Of a DNA stretch of 64,000 nt, positions 14,676 through 60,213 are shown one piece after another. This DNA is from Candidatus Uhrbacteria bacterium (GTDB lineage: Bacteria; Patescibacteriota; Patescibacteriia; UBA9934). The stretch covers positions 266,766 to 330,765 of the forward strand of contig CAWGHH010000002.1 of the NCBI GenBank assembly GCA_963822405.1, written 5' to 3'. The first letter of the stretch is position 1; each line of letters starts with the position of its first letter. A model generated the notes under the pieces. It worked only from the letters and a program-made list of their open reading frames with translations, made no database searches and had not been told where the DNA came from. Position numbers and translations under genes: made by a program.

Positions 14676-14783
14676 AGTCATTGCGAGGGATCTCCGTAGC
14701 TTTGAGCAAAGGAGATGCCCGAAGCAACCTCACGAGATTGCTTCGACCCAGCTGGATACAGCTGGTCTCGCAAAGACGGAAAA
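14676..14783 (+). repeat. Structured interspersed repeat, copy B
   Basis: gtcattgcgagggatctccgtagctttgagcaaaggagatgcccgaagcaacctcacgagattgcttcgacccagctggatacagctggtctcgcaaagac. Fills the serS-alr intergenic region and ends 4 nt before the alr ATG. Confidence 0.6.
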
Positions 14784-25371: not shown

Positions 25372-26515
25372 CTATTTTATCACACCACTCCCAACCGCCT
25401 CTTTAACATTCCTGAACCCATCTCTTCGTAGTAGCTCAGCGAGTCCTTTATTAATTTCGCCGATTACCTGCGGAACCTTGGAAAATCATCCCAGTGATCA
25501 GCTGGACGAGTGAGGCGCCTCGACAAATCTTCGCGTAGGCGTCTTCGGCCGTGAAGATTCCGCCGGTGCCGATGATGACGAATCGGTTGCCGGTCGTTTT
25601 ATATAAATGCTCAATCAGGGCGAGGGACGCATCAGAAGTTGGCTTGCCGCTGATTCCGCCTTTAGTGATGCCGGCAATTTCTGTCTGATCGATTTCCGGA
25701 CGATCGCGCTTCTTAGTTAGGTTCGACAAAATGATTCCGTGTACGCGATGTCGTTTGCAGACGTCGACCAAACCGTCCAGCTCCCCCGTCAGCAAATCCA
25801 CCGGCATCTTGATGAAGATTGGTTTACTAGTAGCAATCTTGTCGAGTTCAGTCATTAACAGTTCGAGTCGTTCAGGAGTTGTGAAAGGCTCTCCCCCGCA
25901 CGTGTTCGGACAACTAATGTTGATCGTAAAAAATTGCCCGATGTCGACAAACGCTCTGAACGCCTTGGCGTAGTCGTTGATGCCGTCCTGCAGTTCAACG
26001 GTCGACGCGTCATTGGTCTTCGCTACACTTATCCCAATCGGCAGCGGGAAGGTCTTACCCTTAAGCCTCGACGAGATTGCTTCTGCTCCATCGTTCTTCA
26101 GTCCGTAGTAGACGACTAGCCCTTTACTCTTTGGTAACCGCCATAATCGAGGTCTCGGATTCCCCGCGCACGCCTCCCCCGTGATAGAGCCAACTTCCTC
26201 AAAGCCAAAACCTACCGCCGCCATCACGTTTGGCAACTGCGCGTTCTTATCGAACCCCGCCGACAAGCCAACTGGATTCGCAAAATGTATTCCAAGAATG
26301 TTCTGTTCAAGGATCGCGTCGTCATAACGGTAATTCAAGCGCGCGAGCCCTCGCAATGGTGCAACCGAGCCAATTACTCGACCAGCCAACGTAAACGCAT
26401 CATGGACATCTTCTGGGTCGCGTTTAAAAATAATCGGCTTTAATATATTTTGATAAGCCCAGGCCTGAAGTTTTGTGGCGAACATATTACAAACGACCGA
26501 GATCGAACTTTCCAT
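25372..26515 (-). pseudogene. pyrD: Dihydroorotate dehydrogenase (quinone, class 2) with apparent 1-nt frameshift near the 3' end
   Basis: Class 2 DHODH motifs GFGFEEVGSIT, NISCPNT, IGTGGI. The annotated frame ends prematurely (...ITGMIFQGSAGNRRN, stop at 25451). Shifting 1 nt at about 25472 restores a canonical C-terminus GPQVIGEINKGLAELLRRDGFRNVKEAVGSGVIK ending at 25372. Confidence 0.7.
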
Positions 26516-27227
26516 TCACTGTACACTTCTCTTTTATTTGTTTGGCAAGACTCTGAATATCGTCCTCAAACAAACTTGAATATTCTTCTTCCTCAAATAA
26601 CTTCATCACAATCCCAATCATTTCTTGGTAGAAATTCGCGTCACCTGTAAGTCTCTCCCAAAAATCCTGACCAACATAGATTGGAATATGTGGTTGTTGA
26701 CCGATTGTCTCGTCGTGAATCTTCTTGTAATGCCCGCTAATCTGGTCGAGTGTTCCGTACGTAATCCCAATTGCAAAAGTCGGGATAGTCGCCGCTCTAT
26801 TCTGAAGCAATAATCTATAGGCCGTCTTCATCTCATCCAATATCGGCTTCACATCACCTGCATTGATCGTATTTGGACCAGACTTCAGCTGCATGACTAT
26901 CCTTCCACCCTCTTTCTTGTTCTCAAATTCAATATCCATTCCAGCTGTGCTCGAAGCTTGCGCACCAAGCTGTTGAGTGCAGAGTCTCTGCATCATGTCC
27001 CCAAAAGTTGTGCTAACCGACGTCCCGAATACTCGAGGATACAAGAGAGCCTTCGCGACATTCTCTGGGGTGCACTCCCCCAAAATACCGCTAGACAACG
27101 CAGCTATAGCGAATGGATTTACGTTAAACTTTGATAGCTTGTGCCCACTTTCTAATTTTGCTCGAAGTACATCAGCGAATTCAATTTTGAAATACTCACG
27201 AATCACCTTTTCGGTTTGTTTATCCAT
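26487..27227 (-). CDS. Putative type II restriction endonuclease (PD-(D/E)XK-like), partner of the adjacent m5C methyltransferase
   Basis: 246 aa. Divergently arranged against an m5C MTase, sharing an 82-bp promoter region. Candidate nuclease motif GMDIEFEN...VMQLKSG (D...QxK). Family not recognised; the call rests on context. Confidence 0.45.
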   Translation of the reverse strand: MDKQTEKVIREYFKIEFADVLRAKLESGHKLSKFNVNPFAIAALSSGILGECTPENVAKALLYPRVFGTSVSTTFGDMMQRLCTQQLGAQASSTAGMDIEFENKKEGGRIVMQLKSGPNTINAGDVKPILDEMKTAYRLLLQNRAATIPTFAIGITYGTLDQISGHYKKIHDETIGQQPHIPIYVGQDFWERLTGDANFYQEMIGIVMKLFEEEEYSSLFEDDIQSLAKQIKEKCTVNGKFDLGRL

Positions 27228-27273
27228 AATGGAAAAGCATAGACCTTTGGTACATTTTTGTCACTTATGAACA

Positions 27274-27302
27274 AGTAACCACTGCATAAGGCAATGGTTA
27301 CT
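27274..27302. promoter_or_regulatory. Near-perfect 29-bp palindrome in the R/M divergent promoter, candidate operator for the MTase N-terminal HTH
   Basis: AGTAACCACTGC-ataag-GCAATGGTTACT (11/12 arm match). Sits directly upstream of TATACT and the methyltransferase ATG at 27310. Confidence 0.55.
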
Positions 27303-27309
27303 ATATACT

Positions 27310-28548
27310 ATGTCTGCTATGCCAAAACTTCTTTCGGTTATCGAAGCTTCACTCCGGATCGGCGTCTCCTCTGACACTATTCGTCGCTGGGACAAAAAAG
27401 GATTAATCAAAGCCCAACGCTCCCCGCTTAATCATCGTCTATTCGATTTCGATGAAATCATGCGTTTGCATAACAAAATATCAGGCACAAGTAGTGGAAA
27501 CAACTACAAAGTACTTAGAACAAACAAGAAATCGGGATATACGGCTATTGAACTATTCGCCGGAGCAGGCGGAACTGCCCTAGGATTCGACAACGCTGGG
27601 ATCGACCATACTCTCCTCACCGATTGGGACAAAGACTCGACCGACACGTTAAAATTCAACAAACCAAATTGGAACGTTGTTCGTGATGACGTGCGAAACA
27701 TCGACTTTTCAAAAAAAGACGCAGATATAGTAGAAGGCGGCTTCCCTTGTCAATCCTTCAGCTTCGCCGGCAAGAAACTCGGCTTCAGCGATATACGAGG
27801 AACAATGTTTTTCGAATTCGCACGTTGCCTTAAAGAAGTCCAACCAAAAATTGCCATGGGTGAAAATGTTCGTGGCCTCCTCGCGCACGAAGACGGACGA
27901 ACCCTCAAAACGATCATCGGCATCATGAAGGACTTAGGCTATAACGTCGCTTACAAAATTCTCCGCGCTCAATATCTCGATGTTCCGCAAAAACGCGAGC
28001 GCCTCATCATTATCGGCATTCGCAAGGATCTCGATCTCCCGATTCTCTTCCCGCGAGAAAGAGATTACACAATCTCAATGAAGGAAGCGTTGGCCGAATG
28101 TCCACTTTCAGACGGACAATCATATCCAGATAAAAAACGAGCGGTCATGGAATTGATACCAGCGGGTGGGTATTGGAAAGACTTGCCAGTACCGATGCAA
28201 AAAAAATACATGGGAGCTAGCTATTACATGGGCGGTGGAAAAACCGGCATGGCTCGTCGCCTCTCTTGGGATGAACCGAGCCTCACGCTTACCTGCGCGC
28301 CAGCACAAAAACAAACCGAGCGTTGTCATCCGAGCGAGACTCGACCCCTCACGGTTCGCGAGTACGCCCGTATTCAAACCTTTCCCGATTCTTGGGACTT
28401 CTCAGGCTCGACCACATCCCAATATAAGCAGATAGGAAATGCTGTCCCCGTAAACCTCGGATTCCATATCGGCACATGTCTAAAAGCATCCCTCAATGGC
28501 AATGCCGACGAGAAAACCATGGAACTTGCTGAACCAATCGAAAACTAA
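27310..28548 (+). CDS. DNA (cytosine-5)-methyltransferase with N-terminal MerR-type HTH domain
   Basis: 412 aa. N-terminal LLSVIEASLRIGVSSDTIRRWDKKGLIKAQR (MerR-like HTH). m5C motifs I ELFAGAGG, IV GFPCQSFSFAGK, VI ENVRGL, VIII QRRERLIIIG. Confidence 0.9.
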   Translation: MSAMPKLLSVIEASLRIGVSSDTIRRWDKKGLIKAQRSPLNHRLFDFDEIMRLHNKISGTSSGNNYKVLRTNKKSGYTAIELFAGAGGTALGFDNAGIDHTLLTDWDKDSTDTLKFNKPNWNVVRDDVRNIDFSKKDADIVEGGFPCQSFSFAGKKLGFSDIRGTMFFEFARCLKEVQPKIAMGENVRGLLAHEDGRTLKTIIGIMKDLGYNVAYKILRAQYLDVPQKRERLIIIGIRKDLDLPILFPRERDYTISMKEALAECPLSDGQSYPDKKRAVMELIPAGGYWKDLPVPMQKKYMGASYYMGGGKTGMARRLSWDEPSLTLTCAPAQKQTERCHPSETRPLTVREYARIQTFPDSWDFSGSTTSQYKQIGNAVPVNLGFHIGTCLKASLNGNADEKTMELAEPIEN

Positions 28549-28560
28549 TCAACACAAAAA

Positions 28561-28587
28561 CACGAGCCACTTAGACTCGTGTTTTAT
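28561..28587. terminator. Bidirectional hairpin terminator
   Basis: aaaaacacgag-ccacttaga-ctcgtgtttt, with T-runs on both strands, between the MTase (+) and the Cas2-like gene (-). Confidence 0.55.
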
Positions 28588-28685: not shown

Positions 28686-28958
28686 CTATGTATTTCGCAA
28701 CCAGTTAACAACAGCTTCCGGCATTCTATATCCTGCCCAATCAGATGAAACTTCTGTCACGAATATTCGATCGTTAGAGTCTACAGCCGCAATCAAACGA
28801 TTAATAATCGCCACAGAAGAGTCGTCAGTTCTAATCAACCACAAAGATTCCATTGGCTTAGCCCAAAATCTATAACTTTTTATCAACTCAAACAACCTAG
28901 CGTAATCGAGACTTGTTTCTGGTCGAATCAAGTCGTAAGTAATTAAATATACTTTCAT
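28686..28958 (-). CDS. Small Cas2-like (ferredoxin-fold) protein, 90 aa
   Basis: MKVYLITYDLIRPETSLDYARLFELIKSYRFWAKPMESLWLIRTDDSSVAIINRLIAAVDSNDRIFVTEV. Beta1 hhLITYDh, ESLWLI and DSNDRIFV follow the Cas2 pattern (hhLVTYDV...NSVFEC...DSLRIY). Inferred from pattern only. Starts 2 nt after the PIN gene stop. Confidence 0.35.
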   Translation of the reverse strand: MKVYLITYDLIRPETSLDYARLFELIKSYRFWAKPMESLWLIRTDDSSVAIINRLIAAVDSNDRIFVTEVSSDWAGYRMPEAVVNWLRNT

Positions 28959-28960
28959 AA

Positions 28961-29944
28961 CTATGGATTTACTTCCTGCGCATCTTCATTTCGCATAGAT
29001 GAACTGGCGGAATGAGGCGTCTGTATATTCTCGGTCTCCTTTATCGCGGAACTCCCCGACGAAAGATCGGCGTCATTCTGCGAATCTTCGTTGGTAACAA
29101 TAGTGTCCGAATCTCGTCCCAACACCTTTATTTCTTCGATGGTGCCCTGACTTATGCTAGCACCGTTCTTCCCGGCCTCCACAAGAAAGCTTTCGAGCGT
29201 ATACATCACAAAATTCACATTTGCCTCCTTTTTGATTTCGCGTTTCAACTCAATTCGAGGACCAATCTTATAACCACCCAAACCAATTTCCCACCAATCA
29301 TCCTTACTATCATTTGTCACAAAGATAATTGGCTTATTAATACCCTTAGCGTACTCCATCATCTGTTTCCAACCAAGAAAATCACCTGGTCGTTTATCTC
29401 GAAATCCTGGTGGGGTCTGAATGCTCATGCGATACTTTCCCTCTTTCTTCTTGTCTTCCAGCTGTTCCGTACTATATGGACTCCCGACACGACCTTCAAA
29501 TAATACATCAAATTCAGTTCTAATGGGGTCGGCAATGTACCAATCGATTTCTTTCTCGGCCTCTTCTAATTCTTTAGTGGCGGAATCTAAAGCGGCCTTT
29601 AATTTCGTCAAAATACGATCTTGTTTTTCTGATGGAAGTCGCAACCGTTCGTTCTCAATATGTCGAACACTTTCGTGAATCCATCCCCATAGCTCTCTTC
29701 TTCTCACAAGTTGTTCTGTAATCACTTTTTGACGATTCTGTTGATACTCGAGTGCGAACTGATGAGGAATCCAAATTGATTCCTTACGATCAGAAAGAAA
29801 TTTAATGAACTCAGTTTTTGCTGTTAACGAATATCGATACACTTCCAATAAAATATTGGCATCAAAAACAAAGACTCCTTCAGACCACCATGACTTGAGA
29901 TCCGTCTCTGATATCGGATAATGGTCAGGAAAGATATCCTTCAT
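28961..29944 (-). CDS. PIN-like domain nuclease (DUF4935-like) with acidic disordered C-terminal tail
   Basis: 327 aa. PIN acidic motifs VFVFDANILLEVYRY, HQFALEYQQN, KPIIFVTNDSKDDWWE. C-terminal 60 aa is S/D/E-rich and low-complexity. Confidence 0.6.
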   Translation of the reverse strand: MKDIFPDHYPISETDLKSWWSEGVFVFDANILLEVYRYSLTAKTEFIKFLSDRKESIWIPHQFALEYQQNRQKVITEQLVRRRELWGWIHESVRHIENERLRLPSEKQDRILTKLKAALDSATKELEEAEKEIDWYIADPIRTEFDVLFEGRVGSPYSTEQLEDKKKEGKYRMSIQTPPGFRDKRPGDFLGWKQMMEYAKGINKPIIFVTNDSKDDWWEIGLGGYKIGPRIELKREIKKEANVNFVMYTLESFLVEAGKNGASISQGTIEEIKVLGRDSDTIVTNEDSQNDADLSSGSSAIKETENIQTPHSASSSMRNEDAQEVNP

Positions 29945-58174: not shown

Positions 58175-58287
58175 GAGACATGCCTAGGCATGCAACCGTC
58201 ACCACGCGTCCGCGCGGCTATAGGCCCCGCGGACGCTTCCCTTTTAGATTGACTTTCCCAAAAAAATTAGCTATCCTCAGCAAATCT

Positions 58288-59450: not shown

Positions 59451-59581
59451 AAGGGTTTGGCTCGCCCGTAGGGCTACGCCCGAGGGCGCCGCCAAACCCT
59501 TAACACCAAAACCCCGGAGTAAAATCCGGGGTTTTGGTTTGTAAATAGAAAAACCCCCCTCGGCGTATGCTCAGAGGGGGG
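59451..59581. terminator. Cluster of three strong hairpins (terminators for convergent rlmD and uppS)
   Basis: 11-bp stem aagggtttggc/gccaaaccctt enclosing two GC hairpins. aaaaccccgga-gtaaaa-tccggggtttt. cccccctc-ggcgtatgctca-gagggggg. Confidence 0.6.
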
Positions 59582-60213
59582 TTGAGGTATTCTTGCCTGT
59601 TGTTCGTGCCTTTCGTCGGCCATGGTCAGGTGACCAACCTCCGTCAGTGGAGGCTTTCTCGAATTGTTTTCGCATCGCATGATGCTCAATGACTTTCGTC
59701 AGAACTTCACGCGATCGAAGGGTGAGAATAGACGGCCCCCGTAGAGGCTCAACCCGCATAGTTGGTGCATTGGCCTCCAACCTTTATGCGCACGTCTTCT
59801 TGAGACGGCGGGGACTGGCGCTGTCCATTAGGACCAACGTTCCGCGAACTAATTTGACCCGGCAGAGTTATTCATGAAGTGATAGTTCGTCGGGTTTTGG
59901 ACCCGAGAATCGCTGCTAGCAGCCGAACCATCGCTCTTCTGCTGACTCGATCTCGAACTCGACTCTCGAGCTCGGACACGCGCCCTGGCACAGCCCTGGC
60001 GGCGCATTCTGTCTTCGACGTTCTTGAACGCAGGCCTTGATCACGAGGTATTGCTCCCCGCACAAATAGGCAATACTGCGCTTTGCTCAAGTCCGCTTTA
60101 TGGTCGTTCCACGCCACGGACAAAAAGTAGCATACACCAAAATAGCACTTTTGTCAAATAAATACAGTATAAATAGCCAAAGAAAGTTGAAAAAGTTAAA
60201 AAGGTTAAAAACG

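Follow-up and report, generated by a model that had tools for sequence, protein, structure and literature searches.

How might a restriction-modification (R-M) pair whose methyltransferase carries its own DNA-binding domain keep methyltransferase and nuclease in balance? The question is raised by two divergent genes in a 64,000-nucleotide (nt) stretch of a Candidatus Uhrbacteria bacterium genome (GenBank assembly GCA_963822405.1, contig CAWGHH010000002.1, positions 266,766 to 330,765 of the forward strand), the whole of which is referred to here as the window and supplies the coordinates used below. One gene encodes a type II restriction endonuclease (R) and the other a 5-methylcytosine (m5C) methyltransferase (M), with a palindrome lying between them. 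A divergent type II R-M pair with a helix-turn-helix (HTH)-fused m5C methyltransferase and an operator-like palindrome had been proposed from the bare sequence (the original prediction), and this core reading is supported by the domains, the fold, and the conserved operator. The reading favoured here, given a probability of roughly 0.8, is that of a type IIP R-M system with a nuclease resembling EcoO109I, PmeII, and AvaII, in which M would repress its own synthesis through a MerR-type HTH acting on the promoter palindrome. The features concerned are as follows.

26487 to 27227, minus strand: R gene, encoding a 246-amino-acid (aa) type II restriction endonuclease of the EcoO109I/PmeII (PD-(D/E)XK) family
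27236 to 27264, minus strand: predicted R promoter from a consensus scan, with -35 GTGACA (27264-27259), a 17-nt spacer, and -10 TATGCT (27241-27236)
27274 to 27302, unstranded: candidate operator palindrome AGTAACCACTGC-ATAAG-GCAATGGTTACT, with the conserved core TAACCnnTGC-N5-GCAnnGGTTA at 27276-27300
27282 to 27309, plus strand: predicted M promoter inside the operator, with a -35-like CTGCAT (27282-27287), a 16-nt spacer, and -10 TATACT (27304-27309)
27319 (probable start; first ATG at 27310) to 28548, plus strand: M gene, encoding an m5C methyltransferase of 409 aa (412 aa from 27310)

The two divergent open reading frames, 26487-27227 on the minus strand (246 aa) and 27310-28548 on the plus strand (412 aa), lie exactly where they had been placed originally, leaving an intergenic region of 82 base pairs (bp) if the first M ATG is used.

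Identity and likely target of the two enzymes

The 246-aa protein had been credited with a plausible PD-(D/E)XK signature, while it had not been assigned to any family. The signature is borne out and the family can be named: R matches Pfam RE_EcoO109I (PF14511) with an E-value of 2.3e-24 and 86.7 bits against a cut-off of 22.5, and several of its 376 homologs are labelled “PmeII family type II restriction endonuclease”. The residues D98, E100, Q113, and K115, in the context GMDIEF...QLKxGPN, are invariant in an alignment of 31 sequences that includes the window's R. Searching PDB with the single R sequence gave no match, and only the family profile reached EcoO109I (E 6e-8 to structure 1wtd), placing K115 opposite K126 of EcoO109I; none of the NCBIfam and PADLOC models matched R. 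Judged from its sequence, R is an intact EcoO109I/PmeII-family endonuclease that has kept its catalytic-type residues, the acidic ones being assigned from the alignment. An orthologous methyltransferase adjoins R in 151 of the 161 related loci, and the two genes are 82-91 bp apart in the window. The 246-aa protein is therefore a nuclease family member and not a protein of some other kind, and M, with a nuclease-family partner adjacent to it, is no orphan.

The catalytic part of M was identified by its match to Pfam DNA_methylase (PF00145; E 4e-79) over residues 78-390 (27541-28479; model positions 2-321 of 324), by 250 bits against TIGR00675 (dcm), and by PDB matches to the structures of HhaI (E 1e-42) and HaeIII (E 3e-36). 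The motifs FxGxG, PCQ, ENV, QxRxR, and GNAV can be read in the translation, and the m5C motif set I, IV, VI, VIII, and X is complete and does not vary in the methyltransferase alignment. The N-terminus of M matches Pfam MerR (PF00376) over residues 12-45 with 35.5 bits (cut-off 28.2), as well as MerR_1 (PF13411) above the curated cut-off, with model positions 4-47 of 69 covered. The winged HTH occupies residues from about 7 to 58 (27328-27483); a linker modelled with low confidence leads from it to the methyltransferase domain. In the AlphaFold2 (AF2) models, with a predicted local distance difference test (pLDDT) score of 80 for full-length M and 83 for the N-domain alone, the topology of the N-domain is b-H-H-b-b-H, comprising a strand, helices 10-17 and 21-29, a beta hairpin at 35-46, and helix 47-58. 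The PDB matches of the N-domain profile were MerR-family regulators, GlnR/TnrA, RacA, BldC, and CueR, and the top ranks of a Foldseek search with the AF2 model were taken by BldC, RacA, CarH, HiNmlR, SoxR, and GlnR. The coiled-coil dimerisation helix and the effector domain of MerR proteins are absent from M, according to the AF2 models and the partial MerR_1 match. By sequence and predicted fold the HTH of M is of the MerR type, so that the earlier description of a MerR-HTH-fused m5C methyltransferase with a full motif set stands on PF00376 and PF13411, on PF00145, and on the profile and fold matches.

Methyltransferases 67-74% identical to M, with the same HTH and operator, are paired with nucleases of the Eco47II family (PF09553) or the TdeIII family (PF09520), and whichever of the three nuclease families a methyltransferase is paired with, its target-recognition region is nearly unchanged. 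According to Pfam and REBASE, the sites of Eco47II and TdeIII have a GGNCC core. PmeII cuts GGWCC (bioRxiv 10.1101/2021.02.10.430591), EcoO109I cuts RG^GNCCY, and AvaII, which is related to EcoO109I in its catalytic core, cuts G^GWCC (PMC7337904). In the window, GGNCC is among the most depleted palindromes, with 83 sites observed against 127 expected (0.65); the observed/expected ratios of GGWCC, GGSCC, and CCNGG are 0.71, 0.59, and 0.99, respectively. GGNCC, in whole or in part, is thus the most likely specificity of the R-M pair, and GGNCC methylation would be the best guess for M.

The palindrome as a candidate operator

The arms of the inverted repeat, AGTAACCACTGC (27274-27285) and GCAATGGTTACT (27291-27302), are complementary at 11 of 12 positions around a 5-nt centre. 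Taken alone, the repeat is mildly unusual: about nine sites with 12-nt arms and at most one mismatch occur in the 64-kb window, most of them terminator hairpins, against 1.7 in Markov-1 simulations, and the chance expectation for such a repeat in the 82-bp spacer is roughly 0.002. Its weight comes from the relatives and from its uniqueness in the window, where the family-wide motif TAACCNNTGCNNNNNGCANNGGTTA has a single match even with two mismatches allowed and none in 100 shuffles. The 29-bp palindrome reported originally for the divergent promoter region at 27274-27302 is not only present but conserved on the M promoter in all close relatives.

The comparison set comprised about 175 loci, of which 160 contain relatives of R from genomes and metagenomes and 15 surround close homologs of the methyltransferase. 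The pattern TA[AC]CC-NN-TGC-N4-6-GCA-NN-GG[TG]TA was found upstream of M in every one of the 22 non-identical regions whose HTH is at least 46% identical to the window's. Among these 22 distinct operators, positions T4, A5, C7, C8, T11, and C13 never vary in either arm, and the variable positions tend to read alike in the two arms, as at position 3 (AA in 14, GG in seven, mixed in one), position 6 (AA in 19, CC in two, mixed in one), and position 9 (AA in 11, CC in seven, mixed in four). On sequence grounds, symmetric change on both arms is the mark of a site for a symmetric protein dimer rather than of an RNA stem, because the sequence of the arms is itself kept, whereas a stem would keep the pairing rather than the sequence. 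Across the loci bearing the operator the HTH helix DTIRRW-KKGLIK hardly varies, and no specificity code emerged when HTH residues were set against the operator variants (TAACC versus TACCC), the recognition helix being invariant. The same palindrome is found past the R stop and ahead of the M start in loci of R>M order in which the partner is an Eco47II- or TdeIII-family nuclease; by this comparison the operator goes with M and not with R, since it is kept when nuclease family and gene order differ. The palindrome is, on this evidence, a credible operator to which the HTH of M would bind.

The possibility that the palindrome acts instead as a nucleic-acid hairpin, whether terminator, attenuator, or RNA element, owes something to its folding energy of -9 kcal/mol (z-score -4.9), but is very improbable given that it is AT-rich without a T-tract, draws no call in the terminator scan, lies upstream of both predicted transcription starts, and always occurs together with the HTH domain. 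Its mismatches are moreover of the C/A type and not wobble pairs, six positions per arm are kept in sequence beyond mere pairing, and there is no match in Rfam, for which last reason an RNA element was rejected as a candidate. Control through methylation of the operator, in the manner of CfrBI, was likewise rejected, as GGNCC is absent from 27274-27302.

The position of the palindrome relative to the predicted promoters gives the model its direction. The right arm is followed in the window by A, TATACT (27304-27309), and ATG; in most relatives TATAAT or TATACT occurs 3-5 nt past the right arm, with -35/-10 spacers of 16-18 nt, and the -35-like hexamer in the inner left arm reads TTGCAT or TTGCCT in relatives and CTGCAT in the window. 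Public gene calls (P0121) start M at the second ATG, 27319, and in the closest relative, L081, an in-frame TGA stands in place of the window's first M ATG, for which reasons M probably starts at 27319 and is 409 aa long. The closest relatives have their M ATG 6-9 nt past the -10 element, which together with the L081 stop codon makes both this start and a leaderless M mRNA probable. On the other strand, the R -10 element TATGCT ends 8 nt before the R ATG, the R -35/-10 layout recurs in L081, L161, L163, and L164, and a TAnnnT hexamer starting 10-15 nt before the R ATG is found in 13 of 15 divergent relatives. R and M both appear to start 6-9 nt after the -10 element with no Shine-Dalgarno sequence, in the window as in the close relatives L081 and L161-L165. 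From these short distances we infer that the mRNAs of R and M are leaderless or nearly so.

In the mechanism proposed, two copies of the MerR-type HTH would bind TAACCnnTGC-N5-GCAnnGGTTA, one on each 10-bp half-site. The palindrome would cover the -35 element of the M promoter along with its entire 16-nt spacer, and it is on account of this coverage that steric repression is predicted: bound M would exclude RNA polymerase, repress its own synthesis, and so steady the level of methyltransferase. As a more speculative step, occupancy of the operator may also help or time the expression of R. HTH-methyltransferases are known to repress their own promoters via inverted repeats, and steric repression has been experimentally established for M.Ecl18kI and M.SsoII (PMC2760811, PMC6100179, PMC3874152). 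By analogy with these, and from the placement of the operator, autorepression is the likely mode of control of M.

Several points weigh against this reading. The support for the operator and for autorepression is comparative throughout; the N-domain lacks the MerR coiled coil, so that two copies would have to pair on the site by other means; and BldC, which ranks among the best matches by fold, binds repeats that are direct and not inverted. The -35-like CTGCAT of the window is weak, and promoter rules in the candidate phyla radiation (CPR) are not established. Distant relatives, with HTH domains 27-44% identical, have the shorter and differently spaced TAACC-N8-GGTTR, so the operator model, as far as their sequences tell, does not carry over to them unchanged. 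As regards specificity, the depletion of GGNCC is moderate and comes from 64 kb only.

The remaining alternatives differ in what the bound domain would do. Classical MerR activation corrects suboptimal spacers of 19-20 nt, the HTH binding between -35 and -10 and twisting the DNA; that M activates its own promoter in this manner would fit an N-domain of the MerR type and a dyad overlapping the -35/-10 interval. It is nevertheless unlikely, as the predicted spacers in the window and its relatives are 16-18 nt rather than 19-20 nt, the coiled-coil and effector domains for an allosteric switch are absent, and the left arm lies over the -35 hexamer itself; nor does the cited HTH-methyltransferase literature offer a precedent for positive methyltransferase autoregulation. 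A less doubtful alternative, though still a tentative one, is a dual switch in which operator-bound M represses its own promoter and, from about -61, switches on the divergent leaderless R promoter directly, much as a class I activator would, R being delayed until M has accumulated. The R promoter lies some 11 bp beyond the operator, whose centre is at about -61 from the R start, and in 12 of 15 divergent relatives the stretch taken up by the operator runs from about -73 to -49 relative to the R ATG. This constancy, although the sequence in between has diverged, speaks for the switch, as does the rise in R expression upon binding of M.SsoII or M.Ecl18kI, indirect though that effect is. On the other hand, the constant spacing may result just from two compact promoters placed back to back, the transcription starts are predictions, and the same operator and HTH are found in R>M and convergent loci that have no adjacent R promoter.

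A purpose other than regulation, with the HTH serving as an excisionase-like or recombination-directionality-like domain for cassette mobility or as a general DNA tether, has in its favour weak matches to excisionase/HTH_17 and to the IS607 N-domain, Xis structures among the Foldseek matches, and the varied contexts and below-flank GC content of the cassette. It is considered highly implausible, as neither in the window nor in the relatives does an integrase or transposase adjoin the pair, and the single conserved site always sits on the M promoter, never at an end of the cassette. Autorepression through the promoter palindrome is therefore preferred.

A conserved site of the ATAACCATGTATAAcGTTGA type (TAACC-N8-GGTTR) with a TATAA box inside it replaces the 25-bp operator in gammaproteobacterial and other distant relatives, the TAACC half-site being retained at a different spacing; it was noted upstream of M in L012, L017, L022, L025, L027, L041, L067, and L134, among other loci.

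Gene order, family census, and neighbourhood

The distribution of HTH classes over the gene orders of the family is given below.

Divergent R-M loci: 43 with a MerR-type and three with an Xre-type HTH
Codirectional loci in the order R>M: 17 MerR-type, no Xre-type
Convergent R-M loci: seven MerR-type, 72 Xre-type, one without an extension, seven unclear or truncated
Codirectional loci in the order M>R: no MerR-type, one Xre-type

As read from the sequences, HTH fusion is the norm in the PmeII-type R-M family, nearly all of whose methyltransferases have a MerR- or Xre-type HTH. The idea that the fusion is confined to the divergent order was rejected, because methyltransferases that seemed to lack an HTH carry a diverged MerR-type or an Xre-type one. 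HTH class correlates with gene order, Xre-type domains being mostly convergent and MerR-type domains mostly divergent or R>M. Orthologous methyltransferases that are 52-60% identical carry either an Xre/Cro-type or a MerR-type HTH (L005-L160; for example L008:2077-3396, L007:2287-3690, and L043:4659-5882). This mixture of classes among orthologs implies independent recruitment or swapping of the domain. The MerR-HTH methyltransferase architecture is very common in Patescibacteria, the group in which the nearest homologs, too, probably place the genome of the window, and is also found in other phyla and on plasmids; the hits of a tblastn search against plasmids were annotated generically as “dcm”, and no named enzyme from REBASE was among them.

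The possibility should be considered that HTH, methyltransferase, and operator-promoter form a portable autoregulated cassette, joined to at least three nuclease families (EcoO109I/PmeII, Eco47II, and TdeIII) in three gene orders, which in its divergent form would also be a class-I-like activator of leaderless R from about -61. This composite proposal is a shade more doubtful than the dual switch on its own. If true, it would amount to a timing switch unlike the promoter competition of SsoII/Ecl18kI, with MerR-like domains pairing without a coiled coil.

The region that holds the pair differs in composition from the sequence on either side, with a GC fraction of 0.39-0.47 over 26.5-30 kb against 0.48-0.54 in the flanks, and relatives of the pair were found in unrelated genomic contexts. 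Both observations are consistent with horizontal acquisition of the R-M pair. On the R side, the original prediction had the pair overlapping the 3' end of pyrD by 29 nt. The length of the overlap is right, but the end is not: both genes are on the minus strand, and it is the 3' end of R that meets the 5' start of pyrD. The longest pyrD reading frame, 25451-26515 on the minus strand, begins 29 nt inside the R gene with the start used by the public gene calls. An alternative pyrD ATG lies in frame at 26485, two bases past the R stop, and does away with the overlap; such a start would make R and pyrD tightly coupled, so that R may share a transcript with a housekeeping gene.

On the M side, the gene is followed by one further feature and two convergent genes.

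28557 to 28585, unstranded: hairpin AAAACACGAGcCACTTAGaCTCGTGTTTT, 9 nt past the M stop, with A and T runs on its flanks, from the terminator scan and the inverted-repeat list
28686 to 28958, minus strand: gene for a 90-aa protein
28961 to 29944, minus strand: gene for a 327-aa PIN_8 (PF18476) protein

The hairpin is likely a bidirectional terminator common to M and the convergent 90-aa gene. A compact defence islet formed with a PIN/Cas2-like pair had been suggested. The PIN_8 assignment is clear; the Cas2 likeness of the 90-aa protein is weak and holds at the level of the family, so the islet as such is weakly supported. The 90-aa protein has no Pfam match by its own sequence, and its large family (1326 representatives of about 90 aa) has 15 of 32 members with weak matches to Pfam CRISPR_Cas2, the best at E 1e-5. 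None of the defence-system models in PADLOC matched, apart from the methyltransferase and one weak DUF3780 match on the PIN protein. As the 90-aa gene lies directly downstream of the PIN_8 gene, the two may be a toxin-antitoxin or defence pair for which PADLOC has no model.

Elsewhere in the window, an identical 26-nt hairpin, CGAAGCAACCTCACGAGATTGCTTCG, occurs twice, at 2919-2944 and 14720-14745, 11.8 kb apart, and a cluster of strong GC-rich hairpins (for example ACCAAAACCCCGGAGTAAAATCCGGGGTTTTGGT), probably terminators, was seen at 59505-59590 and 58206-58236.

Comparison with known systems

The regulatory principle proposed here is known, and current understanding is not overturned by this R-M module; its MerR-type version and the operator appear undescribed in the literature searched, as no study of the regulation of a MerR-type methyltransferase fusion was found in the open-access literature. 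The operator consensus TAACCnnTGC-N5-GCAnnGGTTA is precisely defined and testable, and the operator and promoter predictions offer a rare handle on CPR promoter architecture and possible leaderless transcription. The likely methylation of GGNCC is also relevant to the transformation of such organisms.

EcoO109I (RG^GNCCY) shares with the window pair the Pfam family of the nuclease, as seen in the profile match to 1wtd/1wte, and an m5C partner. The sequence similarity to R is remote, and the flanking R/Y specificity cannot be extended to the window's R. The EcoO109I system is run by a separate C protein, C.EcoO109I (PMC4824078), whereas in the window the HTH is fused to the methyltransferase. 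PmeII and AvaII (G^GWCC), together with Eco47II, Sau96I, and TdeIII (GGNCC), have the GGNCC core in common with the probable site of the window pair. GlnR/TnrA and RacA, which as dimers recognise inverted repeats, are together with BldC and HiNmlR the best structural and profile matches of the N-domain, but all of these regulators are free-standing, whereas the domain in the window is fused to an enzyme and lacks the MerR dimerisation helix.

The closest functional parallel is offered by SsoII/Ecl18kI, M.SsoII having been named originally as a known example of the architecture. Like the window pair, these systems have an N-terminal HTH on an m5C methyltransferase, a flexible linker, and divergent R and M genes (PMC2760811, PMC6100179, PMC3978073), as well as an intergenic inverted repeat over the M promoter, which in the window consists of predicted hexamers. 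Self-repression by their methyltransferase in turn tunes R (PMC2760811, PMC6100179, PMC3978073). The likeness is one of function and does not extend to homology. The SsoII-like N-domain is of the Xre/phage-434 type (Pfam HTH_3), in contrast to the MerR type of the window's M; the SsoII-like methyltransferase of plasmid pCE10C has HTH_3 and DNA_methylase domains, and BLASTP aligns no N-terminal region between it and M, while their methyltransferase domains are 32% identical. The SsoII-like operator measures 15 bp (AGGACAAATTGTCCT-type) against 25-29 bp in the window, the target is CCNGG as opposed to probably GGNCC, and the nuclease family differs. By sequence, the two HTH-methyltransferase fusions are analogous and not homologous, since their HTH classes differ and their N-domains do not align, and the MerR-type fusion would represent a second, evolutionarily independent solution, next to the Xre-type one, to the problem of balancing methyltransferase and nuclease.

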